Positions 1,032 through 50,444 of a stretch of DNA of 64,000 nt are shown here, piece by piece. Source of the DNA: an uncultured Lachnospiraceae bacterium (GTDB lineage: Bacteria; Bacillota; Clostridia; Lachnospirales; Lachnospiraceae). Made by a program: the position numbers and the translations under genes. The notes beneath the pieces are model-generated. The model did not search any database and was not told the origin of the DNA. It saw only the letters and a list, made by a program, of their open reading frames with translations. Position 1 is the stretch's first letter. Each line of letters opens with the position of its first letter. The stretch spans positions 1,083 to 65,082 of the forward strand of contig CALWBA010000107.1 of assembly GCA_944375815.1 (NCBI GenBank), written 5' to 3'.

Positions 1032-2690
1032 CTATTTTTTTCTGTAAAATACCAGACTTTCATACGGTTTTAATATAATTTTTTCATTTTCCAGCTTCCA
1101 GAAATCATAATTCCCTAAAATACGATCATATCCATCTATATTTTCCGGTACCTTCCATTCTATCTCTTTACCATAAAAATTATTGACTACAAGAAGCTCT
1201 TCGCCCTGATATGTTCTCTTATACGCGAACACTGCCGGATCATCCTGAGCCAGCGCTTCAAAATCTCCGTATGCGATAACATCATACTCTTTTCTCATCT
1301 TTACAAGCTTCTGATAGTAACGGAAAATAGAATCCTTGTCTGACAGCTCCGCTTCTGCATTAATCTCGGTATGATTTGGATTCACCTCAATCCACGGCTC
1401 TGCTTCCGTAAATCCGCCATTTATCCCATTTGTCCACTGCATCGGCGTGCGGCTGTTGTCCCTGGAATGAATCTGCAGAATCTGGTACGCATTCTCTGCA
1501 GTCAGCCCTTTCTCCTGCAGAATGCGGAAATGATTCAGGCTCTCCACATCCTTATACTGAGAAATGTCTGTAAATCCCGCATTAGTCATTCCCAGCTCCT
1601 CACCCTGATAGATATAAGGAGTGCCTCGCAGACAGTGAACGACTGTTCCGAGCATTTTTGCAGATTCCTTCCAGTACTTCTCTACGTTTCCAAATCTGGA
1701 AACTACGCGGGGCTGATCATGGTTACACCAGAATACCGCATTCCATGCATTATGCTCCGCCATACCTGTCTGCCAGTCGAAAATGATTTTCTTCAGTTTC
1801 TTAAAATCAAAGGGTAGCATCACCCATTTTTCATTTCCCATGAAATCCACTTTCAGATGGTGAAAGCTGAAAACCATAGACAGCTCATGAGAATCTTCTC
1901 CTGCATACTGATAACAGTTTTCCATGGAAGTACTGGACATCTCTCCTACTGTAATAATCTCAGCGTCAGTTCCGAAGGTCATTTCATTCAATTCTTTTAA
2001 ATACTGATGAATATTGGGCCCATCCGTGTAAAAACGGCGTCCGTCGCCTTCATAGTCATCCTCATATACGCTCTTGCTGATCAGATTTACCACATCAAAG
2101 CGGAAACCTTTAACGCCCTTTCCCATCCAGAATTTCACTACGTTCTGAACCTCCCGGCGGACTTCCGGGTTATCCCAGTTCAAATCAGGCTGGCTGACAT
2201 CAAACAGATGCAGATAATATTCATCAAATTTTTCTACATATTCCCAGGCATTTCCGCCAAACTTGCTCTCCCAGTTGGTAGGCGGCACACCCGGCGCTTT
2301 TCCTTTGCGGAAGATGTAGTAATTTTTATATTTTTCATCCCCTGCCAGAGCTTTCTGGAACCATGCATTTCTGCTGGATGTGTGGTTAAATACCATATCG
2401 AGCATCAGACGGATGCCTCTCTTTTCAGCTTCTCTGGAAAGTTCCTCGAAATCATCCATGGTTCCGTATCTCGGATCAATATTATAGTAATCCTCGACAT
2501 CATATCCATTGTCCTTCTGGGGAGACACAAAAAACGGCGTCATCCAGATATAATCAGCTCCCAGTTCTTTAATATAATCCAGTTTCTCAATAATTCCTCT
2601 CAGATCTCCCAGTCCGTCGCCGTTGGTATCATAAAAAGATTTCGGATAAATCTGATAGACTACGCTTTTCTTAAAATCTGCCATTTTCAT
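1032..2690 (-). CDS. treC: GH13 alpha-glucosidase, probably trehalose-6-phosphate hydrolase
   Basis: GH13 motifs (QIYPKSF, DGLGDLRGI, DMVFNHTS, GFRFDV, GEM, FWCNHDQPR). Lies downstream of a trehalose-type PTS EIIBCA and next to a TreR-like GntR regulator. Start moved to MKMADF (ATG at 2688-2690), preceded by GAAAGGAAAG. Confidence 0.8.
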   Translation of the reverse strand: MKMADFKKSVVYQIYPKSFYDTNGDGLGDLRGIIEKLDYIKELGADYIWMTPFFVSPQKDNGYDVEDYYNIDPRYGTMDDFEELSREAEKRGIRLMLDMVFNHTSSRNAWFQKALAGDEKYKNYYIFRKGKAPGVPPTNWESKFGGNAWEYVEKFDEYYLHLFDVSQPDLNWDNPEVRREVQNVVKFWMGKGVKGFRFDVVNLISKSVYEDDYEGDGRRFYTDGPNIHQYLKELNEMTFGTDAEIITVGEMSSTSMENCYQYAGEDSHELSMVFSFHHLKVDFMGNEKWVMLPFDFKKLKKIIFDWQTGMAEHNAWNAVFWCNHDQPRVVSRFGNVEKYWKESAKMLGTVVHCLRGTPYIYQGEELGMTNAGFTDISQYKDVESLNHFRILQEKGLTAENAYQILQIHSRDNSRTPMQWTNGINGGFTEAEPWIEVNPNHTEINAEAELSDKDSIFRYYQKLVKMRKEYDVIAYGDFEALAQDDPAVFAYKRTYQGEELLVVNNFYGKEIEWKVPENIDGYDRILGNYDFWKLENEKIILKPYESLVFYRKK

Positions 2691-2761
2691 CTTTCCTTTC
2701 TGCTCTGCTGTATGCGAATGAGGACGCAGCACTTTGCCGCGCTGACGCCCTCCGTTCTCTG

Positions 2762-4732
2762 TTAAAATTTAATTACTGCTGTCTCTCCTGCTCTGGCATC
2801 CATCCCTGAGAGATACTGAATGTTGGAGGCATTTCCCTCATCCGTCACCAGGAAAATTGTAGTAGTCGGGTGCCCTGCAGATTTAATCTTTTCCGGATCA
2901 AACCGGATCAGAGGATCATTGCATTTTACCTTGTCCCCTTCTTTAACAAAGAGTTCAAATCCATCACCATTCATGTCCACCGTATCAATTCCAACGTGAA
3001 TCAGAAGCTCTGTTCCATTTGCGAGCGTCAGACCGCAGGCATGTCTGGAATCCTCCATTACCGCACTTACCGTAGCGTCAGCGGGCGCAACTACAGTATT
3101 GTCTGTAGGCTCAATCGCTACACCGTCACCCATTATATGCTGTGAAAATACATCATCCGGAACTTCTTCCAGAGGGATTACTCTGCCGCTTAAGACTGCT
3201 TTTAACTCTGAAGGAGCATCCTCTGTCGGCTGTGCTGCCGTTTCCTTTGGCTGCTCTTCTGTATCTGCAGGCTCTTCTTCGTCTTCTTCTCCTACGAGAT
3301 CTGCTTTGGAAAGCTTTGCCTTACCTATAATAAAGGTAAGCACGAACGGTACTACAATCGCTACTGCCATCGCTGCAAGGAAGATCAGGTAGTACTCTGA
3401 ATAGATAGATAAAATTCCCGGAAGTCCGCCGACGCCGATACTCACTGCACGGACGCCGAATCCTACAGAAATCATCGCAGCAATTGCAGAACCAATCATT
3501 CCGCAGACCAGCGGGAATCCATATTTCAAGTTTACACCGAACAGCGCCGGCTCCGTTACTCCCAGATAACAGGAGATACATGCGGGTACATTGACCTGCT
3601 TTGCACGCTCATTCTTTTTCTGAAGAATGGACATCGCAAGAACACTGGAACCCTGAGCGATATTGCTCAGTGCAATCATCGGCCACAGAATCGTACCTGG
3701 TGTGGAGGTATTCTGCATGTTTGCGATTAACTGTGTATCAATAGCATTTGTCATATGATGCAGTCCTGTCATAACAACGGGTGCATACAGCAGACCAAAC
3801 AGTCCCGCAAAAAGGAATCTTACATTAGAAGTAAGACCTGCGTAGACAACATCTGCAATCACGTTTCCGATCTTCCAGCCGATCGGGCCTACAACCATGT
3901 GTGCGATAAAAACTGCCGGAACCAGAGAACAGAATGGTACAACGATCATACTGATCACTGCGGGACAGTGCTTTCGGAAAAATTTCTCAAGATATACCAG
4001 GACAAATCCTGCCATCATCGCAGCAATAACCTGCCCCTGATAGCCGATCATCTGAACCTTTGCAAATCCGAAATCCCATACAGGTATCTGATCTGCCGGG
4101 GTACTTGCCACACTGAATCCGTTCAGAAGCTGGGAGGATACGAGTGTCAGACCAAGGACAATACCAAGCATCTGAGTAGTTCCCATCTTCTTCGTGATGG
4201 ACCAGACAATTCCTACAGGCAGCAGGTGGAATACTGCTTCACCTATCAGCCACAAAAAGCTGTCCACACCTGCCCAGAACTGTGAAATGTCTACAAGTGT
4301 CTTTGTTCCGTTGTCAAAAAATGCGATGCTGTCAATAATATTTCTGAATCCGAGGATCAAACCTCCGCAGATCAGCGCCGGAATGATAGGAGCAAAAATT
4401 TCTCCAAGGTTACTCATCATCCTCTGCAGCCAGTTCTGATTACCCTTGGCAGCCTGCTTCGCTGCCTCCTTGCTCACGCCCTCAATACCGGAGCAGGCAG
4501 TAAACTCATTGTAAAAAGTCGATACATCATTTCCTATGATTACCTGGTACTGTCCTGCCTGTGTAAATGTTCCCTTTACACATTTGATTTTCTCAATTTC
4601 CTTAGTCTGCGCTTTCTTCTCATCGACCAGGACAAAGCGCATCCTCGTCATACAGTGGGAAACTGCCGAGATATTCTCTTTTCCTCCAATGAGTCTTAAG
4701 AGCTCTCGGACTTCGTTATCATACTTTGCCAT
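2762..4732 (-). CDS. treP: PTS trehalose-family transporter, fused EIIB-EIIC-EIIA
   Basis: EIIB Cys motif SHCMTRMRF, a polytopic EIIC core, and a C-terminal EIIA-Glc domain (LIHVGIDTV). Start placed at MAKYDNEV after AAGGAGG. Confidence 0.85.
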   Translation of the reverse strand: MAKYDNEVRELLRLIGGKENISAVSHCMTRMRFVLVDEKKAQTKEIEKIKCVKGTFTQAGQYQVIIGNDVSTFYNEFTACSGIEGVSKEAAKQAAKGNQNWLQRMMSNLGEIFAPIIPALICGGLILGFRNIIDSIAFFDNGTKTLVDISQFWAGVDSFLWLIGEAVFHLLPVGIVWSITKKMGTTQMLGIVLGLTLVSSQLLNGFSVASTPADQIPVWDFGFAKVQMIGYQGQVIAAMMAGFVLVYLEKFFRKHCPAVISMIVVPFCSLVPAVFIAHMVVGPIGWKIGNVIADVVYAGLTSNVRFLFAGLFGLLYAPVVMTGLHHMTNAIDTQLIANMQNTSTPGTILWPMIALSNIAQGSSVLAMSILQKKNERAKQVNVPACISCYLGVTEPALFGVNLKYGFPLVCGMIGSAIAAMISVGFGVRAVSIGVGGLPGILSIYSEYYLIFLAAMAVAIVVPFVLTFIIGKAKLSKADLVGEEDEEEPADTEEQPKETAAQPTEDAPSELKAVLSGRVIPLEEVPDDVFSQHIMGDGVAIEPTDNTVVAPADATVSAVMEDSRHACGLTLANGTELLIHVGIDTVDMNGDGFELFVKEGDKVKCNDPLIRFDPEKIKSAGHPTTTIFLVTDEGNASNIQYLSGMDARAGETAVIKF

Positions 4733-5734: not shown

Positions 5735-5911
5735 ATGCCGGGTAAAGGGAAACCGCAGCGTGCGGCTTCCCTTTTTTTGATCACCGTTTTTTCACATTTT
5801 TATCCCAATTTCATCACACTTCCACTATATTTTTTTCACAGACTTTCTTTATACTATAGCCATAAAAACAAAAAGAAATACAAATCAGACATTCCAAAGG
5901 AGGAATCATAT

Positions 5912-7246
5912 ATGTCAGATTTCAAAGATTATACAGATTACACAGAAAATGAAAATAATGGTTTTGAGATTACAGAGATGCCGAAGCAGAAAAAACCGCA
6001 TAGAAAACTTCCGAAGAAAACTTCCGCTCTTATGAAAAAAGCCGGAGCAATTACATTAAGTGCCATGCTCTTCGGCGGTGTTGCGGCAGGTGCCTTCCAG
6101 GGTGTAAATTATCTGTCCGGCTATAGTACGAATACATCGTCAACAACTCAGCAGACCAGCCTGATCAGAACAACTGCAACCGGCGGTTCCTCAGATGCTG
6201 CAGGAAGCCTTGATGTATCAGACATTGCTTCTGCGGCAATGCCTTCCATCGTATCGATTACTAATAAATCTGTACAGGAAGTTCAGTCCATCTTCAATTC
6301 TTTTGGATACAGCTACCAGCAGCCTCAGACTGAGGAAACAGAAAGCTGCGGTTCCGGTATTATCATCGGAAAGAATGATACCGAGCTCCTGATCGTAACA
6401 AACAATCATGTAATCGAGGGCTCGGATACTTTATCCGTAAGCTTTATCGATAATCAGGTCTGCGAGGCCCAAATCAAGGGTACAGACGCAGACAATGATC
6501 TTGCTGTTATTGCAGTTCCTCTGGACAGCATTTCCTCGGACACTATGTCCAGCATTGCAGTTGCTACTCTTGGAAACTCCGATGAACTGCAGGTCGGCGA
6601 GCAGGTTGTTGCGATCGGAAACGCACTCGGTTACGGTCAGTCCGTGACTACCGGCATTGTCAGTGCCACAAACCGCTCTCTCAGTTCTTCCGAAGACGGT
6701 TCCGCTGACACGAATGCCACCTATATTCAGACTGACGCAGCAATCAATCCGGGCAACAGCGGCGGTGCACTGCTGAACATGAACGGCGAGGTCATCGGTA
6801 TCAATTCTGCAAAACTTGCCTCTACGGAAGTGGAAGGTATGGGTTATGCAATCCCTGTATCAAGGGCAAGCGACATCATTGAGCGTCTGATGAATGAAAC
6901 AACACGCACCAAAGTCTCCGAAGATAATCAGGGAACCCTTGACATACAGTGCAGAGATGTATCCAGCGAGCTGAGCAGCGCTTACGGTATCCCTGAAGGT
7001 ATATATGTTGCTGAAGTCAGCAAAGGAGGCGCAGCTGAGCAGGCTGGTATCAATCAGGGCTATGTGATCACCAAATTCGATGGCAATTCCGTAACCACAA
7101 CGCAGCAGTTAAAAGATAGACTGCAGTATTATGCATCCGGCGAGAAGGTAACCATTACCGTACAGGTTCCTGATAACGGATCCTATTCGGAACAGACACT
7201 TGACATTACGCTTGGAAGCTCTAATACAAATCATGCTGCAGCTTAA
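5912..7246 (+). CDS. htrA: Membrane-anchored HtrA/DegP-family serine protease with C-terminal PDZ domain
   Basis: Catalytic triad contexts TNNHVIEG / DNDLAVI / GNSGGAL. PDZ domain (GIYVAEVSKGGAAEQAGI). One N-terminal TM helix (AITLSAMLFGGVAAGAF). Start moved to MSDFKDY after AAGGAGG. Confidence 0.85.
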   Translation: MSDFKDYTDYTENENNGFEITEMPKQKKPHRKLPKKTSALMKKAGAITLSAMLFGGVAAGAFQGVNYLSGYSTNTSSTTQQTSLIRTTATGGSSDAAGSLDVSDIASAAMPSIVSITNKSVQEVQSIFNSFGYSYQQPQTEETESCGSGIIIGKNDTELLIVTNNHVIEGSDTLSVSFIDNQVCEAQIKGTDADNDLAVIAVPLDSISSDTMSSIAVATLGNSDELQVGEQVVAIGNALGYGQSVTTGIVSATNRSLSSSEDGSADTNATYIQTDAAINPGNSGGALLNMNGEVIGINSAKLASTEVEGMGYAIPVSRASDIIERLMNETTRTKVSEDNQGTLDIQCRDVSSELSSAYGIPEGIYVAEVSKGGAAEQAGINQGYVITKFDGNSVTTTQQLKDRLQYYASGEKVTITVQVPDNGSYSEQTLDITLGSSNTNHAAA

Positions 7247-7269
7247 ACATAGATAACCATTTAATGCAG

Positions 7270-7300
7270 GACGGCACATCCGAAAGGTTGTGCCGTCTTT
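7270..7300 (+). terminator. Intrinsic terminator after htrA
   Basis: GACGGCACA-N10-TGTGCCGTC (9-bp perfect stem) followed by TTT. Confidence 0.7.
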
Positions 7301-7333
7301 AAATGTGAAATAATTCCGTATACCGTTTTATCC

Positions 7334-7361
7334 TTGCATTTTTCTCTGCGTATGCTACACT
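7334..7361 (+). promoter_or_regulatory. Putative sigma-A promoter of the retron transcript
   Basis: TTGCAT (7334-7339), 16-nt spacer, TACACT (7356-7361). The predicted start lies a few nt before repeat a1. Confidence 0.4.
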
Positions 7362-7370
7362 GAAGGTAAC

Positions 7371-7385
7371 ACGCGCAAAGGTACA
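7371..7385 (+). repeat. Retron inverted repeat a1
   Basis: Reverse complement of 7556-7570 except one position, which gives a G-U pair in RNA. Confidence 0.75.
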
Positions 7386-7555
7386 GCGTTCACAGTCTTT
7401 TCTGTGGGGGAAGCGAGTCGCTTTCCTGTTTTTTACTCCGGGACGGCTTCGCCCGCCCTGCGTCAGCTCCGATGTACGGCGGGCATGGACATGCCCGTTC
7501 CCAGCCTTCCGGCTGGTTCAGCACACCTGCACTGTCTTTGGTATCATCTTTTTTG

Positions 7556-7570
7556 TGTACCTTTGTGCGT
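7556..7570 (+). repeat. Retron inverted repeat a2
   Basis: Partner of a1 (7371-7385). Confidence 0.75.
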
Positions 7571-7601
7571 CTGATAATTTACTGACAACTGCGGAGGGAT
7601 T

Positions 7602-8570
7602 ATGCAGATGAATGTATGGAAATATTGCAGCAGAGAACAGGAACAGGCGTTTTTGCTGTCTTTGGATCTTGCCGGAGGGCTTACCGCATCCCGCAAAAAG
7701 CAGGCCGCCCTGCTTTATACACTCTCTAATCATGCCGCAGATCACTACCGGCGTGTCCGCATTCCAAAGAAGAATGGCGGTTTCCGCTCTCTTGACGTAC
7801 CGGATCACCTCTTAAAAACGGTTCAGAAGCGTATTCTGACACAGCTTCTTGAGCAGCTTCCCGTTTCCCCCTGCGCGTGTTCTTACAGAAAGGGAATATC
7901 TCTGCTCGAAAATGTATCACCGCACACGGGAAAACGTTGTGTTCTGAAGCTGGATATTCGAGATTTCTTTGGAAGCATTACTTATATGTCCGTCTACAGT
8001 TTCGCCTTCCCCAGCGAGTTCTTCCCGCCTGCTGTGCGCACACTGCTTACGCATTTATGCTGCCTTCATGACACTCTTCCTCAGGGTGCCCCCACCTCTC
8101 CGTATATATCAAATCTGGTAATGGCCCCCTTTGACCGGCATATGATCAACTGGTGCAAATCCCGCGGCATCACATACACCCGTTACTGTGATGATCTGAC
8201 ATTTTCCGGAGATTTCAACCCAAAAGAGGTAAAGTCATACACCGAAAGTTTTCTGCTGCGTTTAGGTTTTGAACTGAACCAAAACAAAACCCGTTTCTTT
8301 TCCTCATCGCACCGCCAGGAAGTCACCGGGATTGTCGTTAACTCCCGCCCTCATCTCCAAAAAACCTATCGGAGAAAACTTCGTCAGGAATGGTATTTTC
8401 TGAAAAAGTTCGGCCCTGAAGAACATTTGAAACATATGGGGTCTTGCCTTTCCCCGGATAAATACCTGCAAAGTCTGGAGGGACGCATCCGTTATGTGCT
8501 CACCATTGATCCGAATGACAGTGAATTTATAAAGATGCTCCATGAATTGCATTCTTTTCGTTCTTCATAA
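7602..8570 (+). CDS. Retron-type reverse transcriptase (322 aa, stand-alone)
   Basis: RT motifs IPKKNGGFRSL, LDIRDFFGSI, LPQGAPTSPYISNLVM, YTRYCDDLTFSG (YxDD), ELNQNKTRF (NxxKT), and the retron-typical VTG (EVTGIVVN). GGAGGG SD upstream. No fused extra domain. Confidence 0.85.
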   Translation: MQMNVWKYCSREQEQAFLLSLDLAGGLTASRKKQAALLYTLSNHAADHYRRVRIPKKNGGFRSLDVPDHLLKTVQKRILTQLLEQLPVSPCACSYRKGISLLENVSPHTGKRCVLKLDIRDFFGSITYMSVYSFAFPSEFFPPAVRTLLTHLCCLHDTLPQGAPTSPYISNLVMAPFDRHMINWCKSRGITYTRYCDDLTFSGDFNPKEVKSYTESFLLRLGFELNQNKTRFFSSSHRQEVTGIVVNSRPHLQKTYRRKLRQEWYFLKKFGPEEHLKHMGSCLSPDKYLQSLEGRIRYVLTIDPNDSEFIKMLHELHSFRSS

Positions 8571-8578
8571 ATTAAAAA

Positions 8579-8616
8579 CTGCCGCACCGACTGAATTATC
8601 GGTGCGGCAGTTTTCT
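8579..8616. terminator. Bidirectional intrinsic terminator between the RT and ohyA
   Basis: CTGCCGCACCGA-N8-TCGGTGCGGCAG (12-bp perfect stem) flanked by AAAAA and TTTT. Confidence 0.8.
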
Positions 8617-8628
8617 GCCTTTTATGTT

Positions 8629-10599
8629 TTACAGCATTCCTTCTTTGATTACATTATGATCCCGAAGTACTTTTTCTATTACTGTCCCTTTCAGCATCTT
8701 AAACAGCGGCTTTTTGAGGACATTTAACGGTCCGGGGAGTTCGATTTCCAGGGGAGATCGGCCGTCCATCAGGCGTACAGAACTTTCCAGAAGTTCTCGT
8801 ATATCGTATACACTGCCCCAGACTTCCGGGACACCGCGGTCTACTCCCAGCAGACCATAGACTGCTTCCATTGCGGTACGAACGGAGTATTCTGTCGTAA
8901 ATACGGTATCTCTTGGAGTTTCGGCAAATTGTCCGAGGAAGGCAAAGTTCACACATCCATCCGGTATTACGTCCGGACGGTCGCCTTTTGTTCTGGGCAT
9001 GAAGAAGGCTGTGATATACGGCATCATGGTAGGTACACAGACTGCACTGTTCTTAGCAAGTTCCGGAATCTGCTCCACCGGAACACCGATATGATACAGC
9101 CACTCTTCTGTAATCTCCATCCCGGTGCACTCTTTCATCGGTTTCTTCACAAAGTCTCCCGGAACATCTGTAAACAGCCCGTATACCCAGACGCATACCT
9201 TCTCCGGCTCCTGCTCCTTAAATTGTCCCTGGCGGTTGATTGTCCAGCTCATCAGCCAGCTCGAATCGCAGCAGCTTACAATTCCTCCGGTCACAACTTT
9301 GCCGCTTCTGGGATCTCTTTTACAGATATTTGTGATATATGGAAGGATCTTATCATCCAGTGTTGTCACGGTTGCCGACTCCCAGTTTGTCTTCGCGATG
9401 TCTGAGCAGAACTTTTCGGGATGTCCGAATGCCGGATCCTGCTTGGCAATATTTTTCCACAGATTCCAGCAGCCGCTTGTGCTCACCTTGGCGTCTCCAT
9501 TCGGCGCATGATTGTGATCGCCGTAAATGGTTCCCTCTGTGCAGCTTCCGTTGGTCACAAATACAAGGTCGTTTTCTGTCAGAAGGATTCCTTTCTCAAT
9601 GCCCTTCACTCTGCACTCAATCGCAGAGGCAATTTTACTGCCGTTTTTGAACTCAAATACTACATTTGTCACTTCGGTATTAAACTGGAAATCCACACCT
9701 GCATTCTCCAGATACTTCTGCATCGGTAAAATCAGTGATTCATACTGATTATATCTTGTGAATTTGAGTGCGCTGAAATCCGGCAGCCCTGCAATATGGT
9801 GGATAAATCTCTGAAAATACAGTTTCATCTCCAGTGCGCTGTGCCAGTTCTCAAATGCGAACATGGTTCTCCAATACAGCCAGAATGTGGACTTGAATAC
9901 CTCGTCGTCAAACACATCCTCTATTGTCTTATCATAAAGGTCCTCATCTTTTGTCATAAACAGCTTCATAATTTCCATGCAGCCTTTCTGACTCAATCCA
10001 AATTTTCCGTCTGTATGTGCGTCCTCGCCGCGGTTTACAGTCGCGCGGCAGAGTGAGTAATTCGGATCATGCTTATTCAGCCAGTAAAACTCATCCAGCA
10101 CAGACGCACCCGGTTTCTCCAGAGACGGAATGCTTCGGAACAGATCCCATAAACACTCAAAATGATCCTCCATCTCTCTGCCGCCGCGCATAATATAACC
10201 GCGGTTCGGGTCAAAAATTCCATCGCAGGCTCCTCCTGCTACATCCATCGCCTCCAGAATATGAATGTGATTGCCCGGCATCTGTCCGTCTCTTACCAGA
10301 AAGCACGCTGCTGCAAGCGCCGCAAGTCCGCTGCCTACTATATAAGCGTTCTTATCTTCCACACCCTCCGGTTTCTCCGGCCTTGCAAACGCCTCATAAT
10401 TACCCTTGGTATAATAGATGCCCTTACTATTTTTCTCGTGCATCCCCAGTTCCGTATTACGGTAGCTGCTGGTATCCTGCTCCATTTTTTTCGTCGCCTC
10501 ACGGCTGCTGTCTTTTGATTTCTTTGCAAGCACCGCTGCTGCTCCGGCTCCTGCGAGCACTGCGGATGCCACAGTAAATTTCACACTTTTCTTAGCCAT
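8629..10599 (-). CDS. ohyA: Oleate hydratase (FAD-dependent fatty-acid double-bond hydratase, MCRA family) with an N-terminal hydrophobic extension
   Basis: NYEAFARPEKPEGV, the FAD fold IVGSGLAALAAACFLVRDG, and MCRA-like sequence over the full length. Start placed at MAKKSV after AGAGGG. Confidence 0.85.
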   Translation of the reverse strand: MAKKSVKFTVASAVLAGAGAAAVLAKKSKDSSREATKKMEQDTSSYRNTELGMHEKNSKGIYYTKGNYEAFARPEKPEGVEDKNAYIVGSGLAALAAACFLVRDGQMPGNHIHILEAMDVAGGACDGIFDPNRGYIMRGGREMEDHFECLWDLFRSIPSLEKPGASVLDEFYWLNKHDPNYSLCRATVNRGEDAHTDGKFGLSQKGCMEIMKLFMTKDEDLYDKTIEDVFDDEVFKSTFWLYWRTMFAFENWHSALEMKLYFQRFIHHIAGLPDFSALKFTRYNQYESLILPMQKYLENAGVDFQFNTEVTNVVFEFKNGSKIASAIECRVKGIEKGILLTENDLVFVTNGSCTEGTIYGDHNHAPNGDAKVSTSGCWNLWKNIAKQDPAFGHPEKFCSDIAKTNWESATVTTLDDKILPYITNICKRDPRSGKVVTGGIVSCCDSSWLMSWTINRQGQFKEQEPEKVCVWVYGLFTDVPGDFVKKPMKECTGMEITEEWLYHIGVPVEQIPELAKNSAVCVPTMMPYITAFFMPRTKGDRPDVIPDGCVNFAFLGQFAETPRDTVFTTEYSVRTAMEAVYGLLGVDRGVPEVWGSVYDIRELLESSVRLMDGRSPLEIELPGPLNVLKKPLFKMLKGTVIEKVLRDHNVIKEGML

Positions 10600-42693: not shown

Positions 42694-45600
42694 TTACTCT
42701 TCTGTCAGAGTGAGCTCTTCATCGTCGACATCAATCTCTGTCTCCTCAGGAAGTTCCTCCAGGATTTCCTCATCTGCGATATTCTCCACAGTTTCGGTCT
42801 CCTCTTTCTTCTCTTCCTCAGCTTCACCCTTCTTCTTCATTTCTTCTTCCATTGCAGCCATTACATCCGTATCCAGTTTTACATTGCTGTAGCACTTCAT
42901 ACCTGTACCTGCCGGAATCAGCTTACCGATAATTACGTTCTCCTTCAGACCGATCAGCGGGTCAACCTTGCCCTTGATTGCTGCCTCAGTCAGTACTTTT
43001 GTAGTCTCCTGGAAGGATGCTGCAGAAAGGAAGGAATTGGTGGCAAGGGATGCCTTTGTGATACCAAGCATTACCTGCTTGCCCTCTGCCGGCTCTTTGC
43101 CCTCTGCTTCCATCTTCTCATTTACTTCCTCGAAATCCAGAACATCTACGAGTGTACCCGGAAGGAAATCAGTGTCTCCGTTATTCTCAACACGGATTTT
43201 CTTAAGCATCTGGTGAACAATAACCTCGATATGCTTATCGTTAATATCAACACCCTGCAGACGGTATACACGCTGTACCTCACGGATCATGTAATCCTGT
43301 ACTGCACGCAGACCTTTGATCTTCAGGATATCATGCGGGTTCACGCTACCTTCTGTCAGCTCATCTCCTGCCTCCAGATATGTGCCGTCCGTAATCTTGA
43401 TTCTGGAACCGTAAGGAATCAGGTATGTCTTGGATACACCTTCCTCGTTGTCTGTCACGATGATCTCGCGCTTCTTCTTGGTATCCTTGATTGTAGCAAC
43501 ACCCTTAATTTCTGTGATGATTGCAAGTCCCTTCGGCTTTCTTGCCTCAAAAAGCTCCTCGACACGCGGAAGACCCTGTGTGATATCGCCGCCGGCAACA
43601 CCTCCGGTATGGAAAGTACGCATGGTAAGCTGTGTACCAGGCTCACCGATAGACTGTGCTGCAATAATACCGATAGCCTCACCAACCTGTACGCTCTCGC
43701 CTGTTGCCATGTTAGCTCCATAACATTTCGCACAGATACCAATCTTGGACTTACATGTCAGAATCGTACGGATCTTGATCTTATCAAACGGCTTTCCGTT
43801 CTCGTCCACGCCCTCGCTCATAATACGCGCTGCGCGCTTCGGAGTAATCATATGGTTTGCTTTTACAATAACGTTTCCATCTTTGTCCTTGATGGTATAG
43901 CAGGAGAAACGGCCTGTGATACGCTCCTGAAGGCTCTCGATCTCCTCTTTTCCTTCCATGAATGCTTTGACCCACATTCCCGGAATTTCGTCTCTTCCCT
44001 CAGAACAATCTGTCTCGCGTACGATCAGATCCTGAGATACGTCTACAAGACGTCTGGTAAGGTAACCGGAGTCCGCTGTACGAAGCGCCGTATCGGACAG
44101 ACCCTTGCGGGCTCCGTGTGCGGACATGAAGTATTCCAGTACGTCCAGACCCTCACGGAAGTTGGACTTGATCGGGAGCTCGATCGTGTGTCCCGTCGTA
44201 TCCGCCATCAATCCACGCATACCGGCAAGCTGTTTGATCTGCTTATCGGAACCGCGGGCTCCGGAGTCTGCCATCATGAAGATGTTATTATATTTATCCA
44301 GACCGGTCAGCAGCGCTTTTGTCAGAGCATCGTCAGTCTGCTTCCAGGTCTCAACAACCTCTTTATATCTCTCTTCCTCAGTGATAAGACCGCGCTTAAA
44401 GTTCTTGGTGATTCTGTCAACAGTATCCTGTGCTTCCTGAATCATCTGCGGTTTCTGAGGCGGCACAGTCATATCAGAAATAGATACGGTCATAGCCGCT
44501 CTGGTAGAGTACTTATATCCTGTGGACTTGATATCATCCAGTACTTCTGCTGTTTTAGTAGCTCCCTGAGTATTGATAACTTTCTCCAGGATCTGCTTTA
44601 ACTGCTTCTTGCCGACATGGAAATCCACCTCCAGCAGCAGTTCATTGCCCGGAACAGAACGATCTACAAAGCCCAGATCCTGCGGCAGAATCTCATTAAA
44701 CAGGTATCGTCCCAGAGTAGAGCTTACATTTCCGGTAATCTCACTTCCATCCGGCATGGTCTTTGTGCAGCGCACGATTATTTTGGTCTGCAGCTTGATA
44801 TAACCGTTCTCATATGCCAGAATGGCCTCGTTTACGCTCTTGAAGAAGCTTCCTTCGCCCTTCTCTCCCGGTCTTTCCTGAGTCAGATAGTAGATACCCA
44901 GGACCATATCCTGTGACGGAACCGCCACCGGACCGCCGTCAGACGGCTTTAACAGGTTGTTCGGAGAAAGCAGCAGGAAACGGCACTCTGCCTGCGCTTC
45001 TACAGACAGCGGCAGATGGACAGCCATCTGGTCTCCGTCGAAGTCGGCGTTGAACGCGGTACAAACGAGCGGATGCAGTTTGATAGCTTTACCCTCTACG
45101 AGGATCGGCTCCAATGCCTGGATACCAAGTCTGTGCAGTGTAGGAGCACGGTTAAGCATAACCGGATGCTCTTTAATTACATCCTCAAGTACGTCCCAGA
45201 CCTCAGTCTGCAGCTTTTCTACCATCTTTTTGGCATTCTTGATGTTGTGAGCGGTTCCGTTGGATACCAGCTCTTTCATAACGAATGGCTTGAAGAGCTC
45301 AATCGCCATCTCCTTCGGAAGACCGCACTGATAAATCTTCAGTTCCGGTCCAACGACGATAACGGAACGTCCGGAGTAGTCAACACGCTTACCTAAGAGG
45401 TTCTGACGGAAACGTCCGGATTTACCTTTTAACATATCAGACAGAGACTTAAGTGCTCTGTTGCCCGGTCCTGTAACCGGTCTGCCGCGGCGGCCGTTGT
45501 CAATCAGGGCATCCACAGCCTCCTGAAGCATACGTTTCTCGTTGCGCACAATGATATCCGGTGCGCCCAGCTCCAGCAGTCTTCTCAGACGATTGTTTCT

Positions 45601-46416
45601 GTTGATGATTCTTCTGTACAGATCGTTAAGGTCAGACGTAGCAAAACGTCCTCCGTCGAGCTGTACCATCGGACGCAGATCCGGCGGAATTACCGGAATC
45701 ACGTCCATGATCATCCACTCCGGACGGTTGCCGGATTCACGGAATGCTTCCACAACCTCCAGACGTTTGATGATTCTGGCCCGCTTCTGACCGGTGGAAT
45801 CCTTGAGCCCTGCTTTGAGCTCTTTGGCTTCCTTCTCCAGGTCAATTGCCTGCAGAAGCTCTTTAATGGCCTCTGCACCCATGCCCACGCGGAAATCGTG
45901 TGCCGGGTTATTTTCCATAGCCTCCTGGAACTCCCTCTCGGTCAGCACCTGCTTGTACTGTAAGTTAGAGGTTCCCGCATCCAGAACGATATAGTTTGCA
46001 AAATATAACACTTTCTCCAGAGTTCTCGGAGACAGATCGAGAATCAGTCCCATACGGGACGGAATTCCCTTGAAATACCAGATATGGGATACCGGAGCAG
46101 CAAGCTCGATGTGTCCCATGCGCTCTCTTCTGACGCTGGACTTGGTGACTTCTACGCCGCATCGGTCGCAGACAACACCTTTATAGCGGATTTTCTTATA
46201 TTTACCGCAATGACATTCCCAGTCTTTGCTGGGTCCGAAGATACGCTCGCAGAACAGGCCGTCTTTCTCAGGCTTAAGTGTTCTGTAGTTGATGGTCTCG
46301 GGTTTTTTAACCTCACCGCGGGACCACTCACGGATCTTCTCCGGAGATGCCAGACCAATTTTGATCGCATCAAAAGTCATTGGCTGATATACTTCTTTAT
46401 TAGTTGTTTCCGGCAT
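42694..46416 (-). CDS. rpoC: DNA-directed RNA polymerase subunit beta'
   Basis: Catalytic NADFDGDQM and Zn motifs CHCGKYK...CDRCGVEV. Start at [12 protein letters not shown] after AAAGGGG. Acidic C-terminal tail. Confidence 0.98.
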
Positions 46417-46467
46417 TTGATTACCCCTTTCTTTACTTACGCCCGGCAACACGGGCTTGTACAAGGA

Positions 46468-49400
46468 TTACTCTTCCTCAAGAATTTCTTCTGCCAAAGC
46501 CGAGAAATCGTCAGGCTCTGCTTCTTCCTCTACGTCCACAAGCTCTTCTCCCTCAAACTCCTGTTTGGAGAAGCCGTAATCACCGTAGGACTCTTCATCG
46601 CGGTTATAATTTCTGTCACCTTCGATGATAGCATGCAGATCTGTCTCGCCGTAATCAATAGTCTCCATAATTTCAACTTCTGTCTGATCCTCACGCAGAA
46701 CCTTGACATCCAGTCCAAGGGACTGCAGCTCCTTTAAGAGTACCTTAAAGGACTCCGGAATACCAGACTCAGGGATGTTGTCTCCCTTGATAATTGCCTC
46801 GTAGGTCTTCACACGTCCGATAACGTCGTCAGACTTCACGGTCATGATCTCCTGCAGAGTGTAGGATGCGCCGTAAGCCTCGAGTGCCCAAACCTCCATC
46901 TCTCCGAAACGCTGTCCGCCGAACTGAGCTTTACCGCCCAGAGGCTGCTGTGTTACAAGAGAGTAAGGTCCGGTAGAACGCGCATGAATCTTATCGTCTA
47001 CCAGGTGATGCAGCTTCAGATAATGCATGTGACCGATGGTTACCGGGCTGTCGAAAAACTCTCCGGTACGTCCGTCACGCAGTCTTACCTTACCGTCTCT
47101 GGAAATCGGAACGCCTTTCCACAGTTCTCTGTGATCTTTGTTCTTCTCCAGATAGTCAAATACGCGTGCATCCAGAATATCTTCATATTTTGCTGCGAAA
47201 TCTTCCCAGCTTAAATTTACATAATCATTTGCCAGCTCCAGGGTATCCTGAATATCATTCTCGTTTGCTCCGTCGAATACCGGAGTAGCGATATTAAATC
47301 CAAGTGCTTTTGCCGCAAGACTTAAGTGAATCTCCAGGACCTGACCGATATTCATACGTGACGGCACGCCCAGAGGATTCAGTACGATATCCAGCGGACG
47401 TCCGTTCGGCAGGAACGGCATATCCTCTACCGGAAGTACACGGGAAACAACACCCTTGTTTCCGTGACGGCCGGCCATCTTATCGCCCACGGAAATCTTT
47501 CTCTTCTGTGCGATATAGATTCTTACCGCCTGGTTTACACCCGGAGACAGCTCATCGCCGTTCTCTCTGGTAAATACTTTCGCATCTACTACGATACCAT
47601 ATTCACCATGCGGTACTTTCAGAGATGTATCACGCACCTCTCTGGCCTTCTCGCCAAAGATTGCACGCAGCAGTCTCTCCTCTGCGGTCAGCTCTGTCTC
47701 TCCCTTCGGAGTTACCTTGCCGACCAGAATATCCCCGGCACGTACCTCAGCGCCGATGCGGATAATTCCGCGCTCGTCCAGATCCTTTAATGCATCGTCA
47801 CCTACACCCGGAACATCCTTTGTGATCTCTTCCGGTCCAAGCTTTGTATCTCTGGACTCTACCTCATACTCCTCAATATGAACAGAGGTATAAACATCAT
47901 CCATAACCAGGCGCTCGCTTAACAGAACAGCATCCTCGTAGTTGTATCCCTCCCAGGTCATGAATCCGATCAGCGGGTTCTTTCCGAGAGCCAGCTCACC
48001 ATTATAGGTGGAAGGACCATCTGCAATTACCTGTCCGGCCTCTACATGCTCTCCCTTGAACACGATCGGTCTCTGATTGTAGCAGTTGCTCTGGTTACTT
48101 CTCATAAATTTTGTCAGATGATATACATCTTTTGTGCCGTCATCATTCGTCATCGCGATCTCTTTTGAAGTAGACCGTGTGATCGTACCTGATTTCTTAG
48201 CAACAACGCAGACACCGGAGTCCACGGCTGCTTTTACTTCCATACCTGTACCAACGACAGGAGCCTCTGTTGTCAGAAGCGGCACTGCCTGACGCTGCAT
48301 GTTGGATCCCATCAGCGCACGGTTCGCGTCGTCGTTCTGAAGGAACGGAATCAGCGCGGTAGCGACAGAGAATACCATCTTCGGGGATACGTCCATATAG
48401 TCAAACATATGGCGCTCGTATTCCTGTGTCTCCTCACGGTAACGACCGGATACATTCTTGTGAATGAAATGTCCCTCTTCATCCAGCGGCTCGTTCGCCT
48501 GTGCTACATGGTAATTATCCTCTTCATCCGCTGTCATGTATACTACCTCATCTGTGACACGCGGGTTCTTCGGATCTGAATGGTCGATCTTACGGTACGG
48601 AGCCTCTACAAAACCGTACTGATTAATTCTTGCATACGATGCGAGGGAGTTGATCAGTCCGATGTTAGGACCCTCAGGGGTCTCAATCGGGCACATTCTT
48701 CCGTAGTGGGAATAATGTACGTCTCGTACCTCAAATCCGGCTCTGTCTCGGGACAGACCGCCCGGACCCAGGGCGGAAAGACGTCTCTTATGTGTCAGCT
48801 CGCCCAGCGGGTTATTCTGATCCATAAACTGGGACAGCTGGGAAGAACCGAAGAACTCCTTCACAGCAGCCGTCACCGGCTTAATGTTGATTAAGGACTG
48901 CGGTGAGATACCGTCAATGTCCTGTGTGGTCATGCGCTCACGCACAACTCTCTCCAGTCTGGATAAACCAATGCGGTACTGGTTCTGCAGAAGTTCTCCG
49001 ACTGCACGGATACGACGATTGCCCAGATGGTCAATATCATCATCATTGCCCAGTCCGTATTCCAGATGAATGTTATAGTTAATAGAAGCTAAAATATCTT
49101 CCTTTGTAATGTGCTTCGGAATCAGCTCGTGGATATCGCGTTTCACTGCGGCCTTGATGTCTTCGATATCCTGATTCTCCTCAAGGATTTTTGCCAGAGC
49201 CGGATAGTAAACCTCTTCGGTCACGCCCAGCGCTTTCTTCTCTTCCTCATCTATGTCAATAAAGCTTGCCAGATCTACCATGAGGTTAGACAGCACCTTT
49301 ACGTTGCGTTCCTCTGTCTGGATCCAGACAAACGGTACGGCAGCGTACTGGATCTGCTGCGCCATTTCCTTGGTAAGCTTTGTGCCTGCTTCTGCCAGAA

Positions 49401-50316
49401 TCTCCCCGGTCGTTGTATCAATGACGTCTTCCGCCAGAACCTGGCCTGCAATTCGATTCTTTAATGCCAGTTTCTTATTGAATTTATAGCGTCCAACCTT
49501 TGCCAGATCGTATCTTCTCGGATCGAAGAACATACTCATGATCAGGCTTTCTGCGCTTTCCACCGCAAGCGGTTCGCCCGGGCGGATCTTCTTATATAAT
49601 TCCAGAAGACCTTCCTGATAGCTCTCTGCAGTATCCTTTGTGAAGCTTGCCAGAATCTTCGGCTCCTCACCGAACAGATCTATAATCTCCGGATTTGTTC
49701 CGTAGCCAAGCGCACGGATCAGAACCGTAATCGGAACCTTACGGGTACGGTCCACGCGCACATAGAACACATCATTTGAGTCAGTCTCGTACTCCAGCCA
49801 GGCACCTCTGTTAGGGATGACCGTGGCGGAATATAACTTCTTACCTACTTTATCATGCGCAATCGCATAATAAATACCAGGAGAACGTACCAACTGGCTT
49901 ACAATAACACGCTCTGCACCATTGATAACAAAAGTTCCGGTAGCCGTCATCAGCGGAAGATCACCCATGAAGATTTCTGTTTCCTTAATCTCATCGGTCT
50001 CCCTGTTATATAATCTGACCTTTACTTTCAGCGGCGCTGCATATGTGGCATCCCTTTCCTTACACTGTTCGATTGTATATTTCTTCTCATCCTCACATAA
50101 TGTAAAGTCAACGAATTCCAAACTCAGCTTTCCGCTGTAATCTGTGATTGGAGAGATATCATCAAAGACCTCTTTCATTCCTTCTTTCAGGAACCAGTCA
50201 TATGAATCCTTCTGAACTTCAATCAAGTTGGGCATTTCCAAAACTTCTTTTTGTCTCTGGTAACTCATCCGCATACTTTTGCCGCTGACAACCGGACGTA
50301 TTCTGTTTTTTTCCAT
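46468..50316 (-). CDS. rpoB: DNA-directed RNA polymerase subunit beta
   Basis: Conserved blocks ([44 protein letters not shown]). Start at MEKNRIRPV after AAGGGGTG. Confidence 0.98.
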
Positions 50317-50444
50317 TGACGTTTCACCCCTTGTATTATGATTTTTTCTTGTCGGAATCTCTGAAAACATCGGTGTTTTCAGGCTGCTTGACTGCCTTTT
50401 GATATTAGCTTTTAGGCATATATTTCCATAATAGTGCATCTTCC

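Follow-up and report, generated by a model that had tools for sequence, protein, structure and literature searches.

A probable stand-alone Ec107-like retron in a Lachnospiraceae-type chromosome

We report a retron in a 64,000-nt stretch of DNA from an uncultured Lachnospiraceae bacterium (CALWBA010000107.1, positions 1,083-65,082, forward strand; the whole stretch is hereafter the window), in which a reverse transcriptase (RT) gene is preceded by a structured non-coding RNA (ncRNA) with msr and msd parts. The weight of the evidence makes it very probable that this locus is a stand-alone Ec107-like retron of clade 2 in a Lachnospiraceae-type chromosome. A preliminary description of the same DNA had called the element a complete retron and had regarded it as a useful new example from a Clostridia-type chromosome. 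We find that all the coordinates and sequences listed there are present in the window, and that the retron call is correct in light of the grouping of the RT, the covariation of the a1/a2 terminal stem of the ncRNA and the branching-G geometry. The term complete does not hold for a tripartite system, as there is no effector gene beside the RT or in the 64-kb window. The claim of novelty is likewise weak, given that the Ec107-like branch is 93% Bacillota and that Clostridia members of clade 2 have already been synthesised and put to experimental test. The unit measures about 1.28 kb from promoter to terminator, and its features, including the predicted template for the multicopy single-stranded DNA (msDNA), are as follows:

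7334-7361, + strand: promoter, with -35 TTGCAT (7334-7339), a 16-nt spacer and -10 TACACT (7356-7361); read from the sequence, with a predicted function
7371-7385, + strand: a1, 5' arm of the terminal stem of the ncRNA, ACGCGCAAAGGTACA
7386, + strand: predicted branching guanosine, directly 3' of a1, invariant in alignments A3 and A4
7391-7406, + strand: msr hairpin 1, CACAG/CTGTG; 4 of 4 aligned pairs change on both sides in relatives
7409-7426, extending to 7408-7426, + strand: msr hairpin 2, GGAAGCG/CGCTTTCC, with an apex made of the closing pairs and an AGU triloop
7427-7436, + strand: U-rich linker, UGUUUUUUAC, the likely stop zone of reverse transcription, the exact stop being unpredictable
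7437-7555, + strand: msd, predicted template for an msDNA of about 115-120 nt, between the msr hairpins and a2, with putative boundaries
7464-7477, + strand: 5' strand of the basal msd stem, pairing with 7521-7534 in the RNAalifold consensus, with compensatory changes
7480-7497, + strand: msd apical hairpin A, GGGCAUG/CAUGCCC, with GCACA(U)/(A)UGUGC at the same place in relatives
7501-7516, + strand: msd apical hairpin B, CCAGCC/GGCUGG, from the RNA fold
7521-7534, + strand: 3' strand of the basal msd stem, from the RNAalifold consensus
7540-7546, + strand: GGUAUCA block near the template start, in columns invariant or nearly invariant in A3
7555, + strand: G opposite the branching G, predicted first templating base, invariant in A3
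7556-7570, + strand: a2, 3' arm of the terminal stem, TGTACCTTTGTGCGT
7593-7598, + strand: ribosome-binding site GGAGGG, a sequence 3 nt ahead of the RT ATG
7602-8570, + strand: retron RT, 322 aa, Ec107-like, with a YCDD box
8575-8614, no strand assigned: 16-bp terminator hairpin separating the end of the RT ORF from that of the convergent oleate hydratase gene (stop at 8629)

The reverse transcriptase and its upstream RNA

Among the PADLOC models, the best match of the RT is RT_Ec107-like (E 2.9e-132, 439 bits, 305 of 307 profile positions), followed by RT_III-A models (2e-97 and weaker), and every other listed match is also a retron RT model. Similarly, its top matches in the PDB are all retron RTs, namely Ec86 (8.7e-35) and then Ec67, Ec78 and Ec83, with Drt2 and group II intron RTs appearing only near 1e-7 to 1e-6. 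The non-retron models of NCBIfam are far under their cutoffs (in bits, 72 against 300 for the group II intron RT/maturase, 54 against 390 for Drt2 and 46 against 200 for Drt3a). Thus, the comparison with retron RT hidden Markov models (HMMs), which the preliminary description had proposed as a check, places retron models at the top and the group II and Drt models well below threshold. Pfam detects RVT_1 alone and no fused domain, which bears out the earlier statement that no maturase, endonuclease or diversity-generating retroelement (DGR) region is present, and all six RT motifs quoted there, including YCDD and VTG, are found in the translation. The YCDD box has been described as peculiar to RT-Eco5/Ec107 (PMC6868368). 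Across 20 homologs the catalytic residues Y195, D197 and D198 do not vary. Retron-type RT motifs, with a variant in region X, are hence combined with a best score against retron RT models. Separately, the only Rfam match in 6500-9500, a weak one to Ocean-V RNA, lies within the RT open reading frame (ORF) on the opposite strand (window 8247-8294, - strand; 29.9 bits against a gathering threshold of 75, E 0.0014) and is most likely due to chance.

Upstream of this gene, an inverted-repeat search recovered the a1/a2 pairing over 15 positions with one G-U, precisely as had been described, with the two arms 170 nt apart. The RNA spanning 7365-7580 (216 nt) has a folding energy of -90.1 kcal/mol, whereas its dinucleotide shuffles average -66.0 +/- 4.6 (z = -5.25, none of 200 as good), so the folding that had been suggested as a further check returned a structure more stable than its shuffled counterparts. 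Canonical retron geometry features two opposing Gs (PMC7736814), and according to the retron census copying most often begins at a G (PMC10849725). Here these two positions are represented by G7386 and G7555. In a scan that imposed no G, 39 of 45 family loci have a G immediately 3' of a1 and 40 have one immediately 5' of a2; the branching-G geometry noted earlier is therefore a conserved feature. By analogy with known retrons, the 2'-OH of G7386 would prime DNA synthesis.

To trace this RNA across relatives, we gathered 109 loci with relatives of the RT from genomes and metagenomes, denoted here by L numbers; a single-protein scan of genome contigs yielded only 14 loci, mostly distant ones. 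The closest of these, L015, has an RT 79% identical to that of the window and shares the htrA-to-oleate-hydratase locus; its a1/a2 arms (GCGCGCAGAAGGACA/TGTCCTTCTGCGCGC) differ from those of the window at several positions, all of which are compensated. In an alignment of 13 relatives, 10 of 10 aligned a1/a2 pairs are kept in all 13, with 8 of the 10 changed on both sides, and RNAalifold additionally recovers msr hairpin 2 and the basal msd stem, 19 of 31 pairs being compensatory. The covariation test that had been called for thus finds the terminal stem both conserved and compensated, in L015 as well as in 13 of 13 relatives. Across the family at large, the arm sequences are unrelated between loci and yet always complementary. 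When we demanded an uninterrupted inverted repeat with a score of at least 10.5, arms 110-260 nt apart, an end no more than 130 nt from the RT start and a G next to it, 60% of 75 distinct RT-upstream regions passed as against 2.1% of shuffled regions, which excludes chance at the level of the family. An adjacent ncRNA that is closed by a1/a2 and kept by covariation is expected of a retron, and the locus possesses one.

We further built a covariance model, R1, comprising the a1 end, the G, hairpin 1 and hairpin 2. In the 64-kb window it has a single match (7380-7431, + strand, E 1.3e-11), and in 83 loci it has 53 matches, 52 of them on the strand of the RT and nearly all just upstream of it, many of the matching loci being absent from the set used for building the model. 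The R1 RNA is hence common to many RTs whose best match is RT_Ec107-like. A distinct arrangement was seen in L043, where some 1.1 kb separate the msr motif (3840-3895) from the RT start downstream of it (4986), as against the usual 150-300 nt; this suggests that something was inserted between its ncRNA and RT.

Both of the small msr-like hairpins previously described (7391-7406 and 7409-7426) are present, the second reaching 7408. In the alignment of relatives hairpin 1 is paired in 61% of cells, because its variable loop length misaligns some sequences. In hairpin 2 pairing extends to 97% of cells, 5 of the 8 pairs are compensatory, and the GCGA-UCG core is invariant in 23 sequences. At its apex (7413-7420) it displays a family signature, GCGAGUCG, which is found down to 38% RT identity. 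The U-rich linker that follows is regarded as the likely stop zone, since retron RT-DNA is reported to terminate typically before an AT-rich stretch (PMC10849725). The overall layout is that of a retron, with two msr hairpins followed by an msd comprising a basal stem and two apical hairpins, the basal stem being weakened in the window. With regard to the msd, the list of stems in the preliminary description stands in part. GGGCATG/CATGCCC (7480-7497) and CCAGCC/GGCTGG (7501-7516) occupy the positions of the hairpins of relatives, hairpin B being replaced there by AAGCC/GGCUU, GUGCC/GGCAC, ACGCC/GGCGU or GGACC/GGUCC. The GCCCGCC/GGCGGGC and GGGACGG/CCGTTCCC stems were seen in the lineage of the window only, the basal stem conserved in the family being 7464-7477/7521-7534.

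A G-U pair stabilises RNA, and the C-A that stands in its place in the complement does not. A stem under selection as RNA should therefore be more stable when folded as the sense strand, and one under selection as complementary DNA (cDNA) when folded as the reverse complement. We compared the two strands under the same energy model in 32 non-redundant family ncRNAs, using an alignment-free procedure with composition controls; as MAFFT set the apical hairpins out of register, these were read from the listed sequences and through this alignment-free test. For the msr half, the sense strand is the stabler one in 29 of the 32 (a mean of -4.4 kcal/mol, where composition predicts -2.2; p = 9e-5). 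For the msd half it is the reverse complement that is stabler, in 24 of the 32 (a mean of +3.8 kcal/mol, where composition predicts +0.5; p = 1.1e-4). The asymmetry of the msd fits selection on a folded single-stranded DNA product, without amounting to proof of it.

As for the expression signals, the TTGCAT-N16-TACACT promoter described ahead of a1 is present, with an extended -10 (TGcTACACT, 7353-7361). A generic promoter scan did not list it, because the weak -35 matches the consensus at only 3 of 6 positions. Its -10 block, TATGCTACACT, is identical in L015, where the neighbouring non-coding DNA is 35-42% identical. The RT ATG (7602) is indeed found 32 nt beyond a2.

Persistence of the locus and the search for a partner gene

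Between the window and L015, the ratio of nonsynonymous to synonymous divergence (dN/dS) of the RT is 0.079 at a synonymous divergence (dS) of 1.7, as compared with a dS of 1.1-2.2 for the htrA, oleate hydratase and TetR genes around it. The retron is thus of the same age as the locus and evolves under purifying selection. The two ncRNAs share 84% identity, against 35% and 42% for the non-coding DNA on its two sides. Elsewhere in the family too, the chromosomal neighbourhood is retained across 52-66% RT identity, as in L017 and L021, which lie by the same amylase cluster, and the msd is conserved in sequence, beyond its structure, across RTs 50-60% identical. Strong purifying selection on both RT and ncRNA at a syntenic site thus argues that the element is not a remnant. 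Close relatives of the RT are essentially absent from the viral contigs of IMG/VR, where the best match has 47% identity and all others 40% or less, and a phage-borne origin is accordingly not supported. The sole moderately close RT on a viral contig (47%; L113:5001-5897) lies within about 1 kb of the contig end, and possibly represents the host flank of a prophage call.

We then looked for a partner gene. The ten nearest proteins have no defence match except a generic trypsin-fold match of the HtrA-like protease, and when accessory proteins were compared by tblastn with the whole 64-kb window, no homolog of the phosphoribosyltransferase (PRTase)-like, winged-helix (WH), WYL or AAA proteins was found. 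Clustering of the flanking ORFs of 93 loci, falling into 64 RT groups, revealed no recurrent neighbour among RTs at least 47% identical to that of the window. PRTase-like and winged-helix neighbours recur only beside the most distant RTs (38-42% identity), which identifies those loci as type III-A retrons. Hence, the linked or fused effector of a tripartite defence retron is absent here, the RT itself having no extra domain.

Two further kinds of genes were observed near RTs of the family. An HTH-WYL-WCX protein is encoded near RT_Ec107-like RTs 43-46% identical to that of the window (L002, L057, L073, L075, L077, L079, L082 and L084); in L002 its gene (2335-3384) directly follows the RT with a 5-nt gap, and in the others it is 2-4 kb away on either side. 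We rejected the WYL protein as a defining partner, since it recurs in 4 RT groups and is adjacent only in L002, being 2-4 kb off elsewhere; it may be a regulator for a sub-branch. In L193 (1202-3858), which has the htrA-to-oleate-hydratase locus, a gene for a 562-aa protein with AAA-ATPase_like and PDDEXK_9 domains overlaps the RT stop by 4 nt (ATGA). L193 has an intact copy of this gene, those of L015 and L016 have an in-frame TGA and have suffered a 3' deletion (L015:1771-4037), and the window (8570-8629) has neither the gene nor any remnant of it. Its homologs, 73-76% identical, occur elsewhere but not beside an RT. The gene may represent an ATPase-nuclease partner that a retron captured recently and that is now decaying, or else an unrelated insertion.

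The retron occupies an intergenic site between housekeeping genes and lacks the hallmarks of a mobile element. On its upstream side are:

5735-7246, same strand as the RT: HtrA-like serine protease, with the ordinary HtrA/DegP make-up of Trypsin_2 and PDZ
7270-7297: htrA terminator hairpin, ahead of the retron promoter

On the other side, the oleate hydratase gene is convergent to the RT, and its product has 79-87% identity with proteins assigned by name to Lachnospira, Blautia, Eisenbergiella and similar genera, which points to a Lachnospiraceae-like host. We sought an empty htrA-ohyA site in contigs with close oleate hydratase homologs and found none; as the neighbours differ in those genomes, the boundaries of an insertion are not definable by means of these contigs. 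At a distance from the retron, the window has two adjacent very long ORFs (1256 and 1323 aa) followed by short ORFs (42694-50439, - strand), which in layout may resemble an rpoC-rpoB ribosomal-protein cluster and would then fit a core chromosomal region.

Proposed mechanism and alternative explanations

We propose that the element would be transcribed from its own promoter (7334-7361) as a single transcript reaching up to the terminator at 8575-8614, the 5' 200 nt of which would fold by way of a1/a2 pairing. The same RNA would be translated into the RT, which would recognise the msr hairpins, probably hairpin 2 with its invariant GCGAGUCG core, prime from the 2'-OH of G7386, and copy the msd from G7555 towards the U-rich linker near 7437. 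The predicted product is a branched RNA-DNA molecule with a structured single-stranded DNA of about 115-120 nt.

Several observations weigh against this interpretation of the locus, and are best considered jointly. The first-ranking NCBIfam model, retron_St85_RT, scores 229.3 bits, just below its cutoff of 235, and region X of the RT reads NVSPH instead of the usual NAxxH. The putative placement within the clade rests on the ranking of HMMs. At permissive thresholds, Rfam returned no known RNA family for the ncRNA in 6500-9500. The basal msd stem of the window has three C.A mismatches as RNA (7467/7531, 7472/7526 and 7476/7522), and was not recovered by single-sequence folding of the window as RNA or DNA; the three mismatches would be G.T wobbles in the cDNA, and L015 has Watson-Crick pairs at two of these positions. 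For the window taken alone, the sense and antisense energies of the msd are equal, without a preference for either strand. The priming chemistry, the start and stop points and the very production of msDNA are projected from known retrons. Finally, the effector search covers the 64-kb window, and an effector elsewhere in the genome is conceivable.

What the element does is a matter on which several explanations compete. Given the absence of a linked toxin, the syntenic housekeeping site and the conserved msd sequence, we consider a role exercised through the RT-msDNA complex or through a partner that is not linked to it likelier than that of a classic abortive-infection module complete in itself. 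We tentatively entertain, as one possibility among several, that it is a domesticated, vertically inherited and toxin-free Ec107-like retron of gut Lachnospiraceae, with the RT-msDNA complex as the functional product, which may serve as a regulator, decoy or sensor. If true, this would explain the conservation of the msd sequence, the apparent selection of its stems at the level of DNA, and the persistence at syntenic sites under purifying selection. A doubtful but serious competitor is an abortive-infection retron with its toxin elsewhere in the genome, wherein the RT-msDNA would restrain the unlinked effector for as long as no phage perturbs the msDNA. In its favour, an effector is part of every well-studied retron, Mestre et al. 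raised this possibility for orphan branches (PMC7736814), and our view of the genome is limited to 64 kb. Set against this are the lack of PRTase, WH, WYL or AAA homologs within that range, the occurrence of relatives in many unrelated housekeeping neighbourhoods with no recurrent partner, and the evolutionary instability that we would expect of unlinked toxin-antitoxin-like pairs.

The remaining explanations fare worse. It is improbable that the element is a decaying, inactive remnant of a type III-A retron, or of an RT plus ATPase-nuclease retron like that of L193, which has lost its effector. The sister RTs at 38-42% identity do belong to type III-A with PRTase and WH genes, the accessory gene in the closest lineage does run from intact (L193) through broken (L015/L016) to absent (window), and loss of a partner in the Ec107 branch has been suggested (PMC7736814). 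Nevertheless, the dN/dS of 0.079, the fully intact catalytic residues, the conserved -10 of the promoter and an ncRNA 84% conserved with compensatory changes amidst non-coding DNA at 35-42% all speak for a maintained element, as does the retention of the effector-less form in dozens of RT lineages, some of them syntenic across 52-66% RT identity. We give very little credence to the idea that the HtrA-like protease (5735-7246) is the effector of a split type XI retron, in which an RT is fused to a trypsin-like protease. In the window as in L015 it is encoded next to the RT in the same orientation, and it matches the protease part of the PADLOC model RT-Protease_XI (E 6e-13), but such a match is to be expected of any trypsin-fold domain; moreover, the protein is an ordinary Trypsin_2 plus PDZ enzyme, its gene is closed off by a terminator hairpin of its own (7270-7297) before the retron promoter begins, and no protease lies beside the RT in other family loci. 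We therefore rejected HtrA as an effector, on account of its PDZ domains, its own terminator and its lack of conservation beside family RTs. The chance that the RT is of the group II intron, DGR, Abi or defence-associated RT (DRT)/unknown group (UG) class, with incidental upstream hairpins, is negligible. The RVT_1 core is common to all these classes and there are weak group II and Drt2/Drt3a matches, but these score 72/300, 54/390 and 46/200 relative to their cutoffs as against 439 bits for the retron model in PADLOC, there is no maturase, endonuclease or DGR accessory region, and the upstream RNA has a conserved and covarying retron architecture. A non-retron class is thus refuted as far as sequence analysis reaches. 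Taken together, purifying selection, syntenic persistence, the conserved msd sequence and apparent DNA-level selection of its stems lead us to lean away from a dead remnant and towards a role carried by the RT-msDNA complex, while leaving room for an unlinked effector.

Comparison with known retrons and related systems

The Ec107-like branch is already catalogued as Firmicutes-dominated and effector-less, with hundreds of representatives from gut Firmicutes, a few of which have been expressed in E. coli. Mestre et al. (2020) described the clade 2 branch with Retron-Eco5 (Ec107) as stand-alone msr-msd-RT units, suggested that it lost its partner, and noted that it may use unknown trans effectors or serve another function (PMC7736814). 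A 2026 SPIRE survey reported 192 clade2_Ec107like retrons, 93% from Bacillota and 91% host-associated, which are without an accessory module and are graded as of low novelty; of the ncRNA models, Ec107_like was detected most often there (10.64898/2026.05.14.725207). The retron census synthesised accessory-less clade 2 members from Clostridium sp. KLE 1755, Ruminococcus flavefaciens, Budvicia and E. coli (PMC10849725, supplement 1), and found clade 2 to be among the highest producers of RT-DNA (PMC10849725). Against this background, the value of the present locus is as a clean, minimal and well-delimited example of an effector-less retron branch whose role has been in question since 2020. It offers as handles an invariant GCGAGUCG hairpin that the RT likely recognises, predictions for the priming G and for the base templated first, a strand asymmetry pointing to the DNA product as the selected molecule, and a natural series of close relatives in which the RT-coupled ATPase-nuclease gene is intact, broken or absent.

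Among effector-less RT systems, DRT2, a defence system made of an RT and an ncRNA, is comparable in that it too pairs one RT gene with a structured ncRNA next to it and lacks a separate toxin gene. The window departs from it in scoring 54 bits against the Drt2 cutoff of 390, in the retron a1/a2 and branching-G geometry of its ncRNA, and in showing no sign of rolling-circle or concatemeric cDNA synthesis. With respect to type XI, the RT of the window is a 322-aa protein with RVT_1 only, and the neighbouring HtrA gene is separate, terminated and unconserved beside relatives. The closest solved RT structure is that of Retron-Eco1 (Ec86) of type II-A (8.7e-35), the retron best understood in structural terms, with which the a1/a2 stem, the branching G and the msd stem-loop are shared; its nucleoside deoxyribosyltransferase-like effector is absent in the window, and the ncRNA sequences are unrelated.

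The affinity to type III-A1 retrons, which combine an RT with PRTase-like and winged-helix proteins and form a sister group in clade 2, is greater, as the RT_III-A model is the second-best match of the RT (2e-97). The type III-A loci L086, L094, L095 and L099, with PRTase and winged-helix genes upstream (the RT of L086, the one scanned, has RT_III-A as its best match), share the ncRNA layout and the GCGAGUCG hairpin with stand-alone Ec107-like retrons, and hence the RNA family spans both groups. Unlike these loci, the window has no PRTase or winged-helix gene adjoining its RT, and the RT identity to them is 38-42%.

The closest likeness is to Retron-Eco5 (Ec107) and the stand-alone branch of clade 2. 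It rests on the HMM and on described features, and the window differs from the E. coli element in its host, a Lachnospiraceae-type Clostridium and not E. coli, and in having NVSPH in place of NAxxH in region X. The best match to RT_Ec107-like over the full length, the YCDD box, an RT of about 320 aa with no fused domain, and the lack of a recurrent accessory gene are those of the branch. Likewise shared are the msr-msd directly upstream on the RT strand, without an accessory gene, and the intergenic housekeeping site; the msDNA of Ec107, at 107 nt, is near the 115-120 nt predicted here. The host phylum and gut habitat of the window also match the bulk of the Ec107-like branch.

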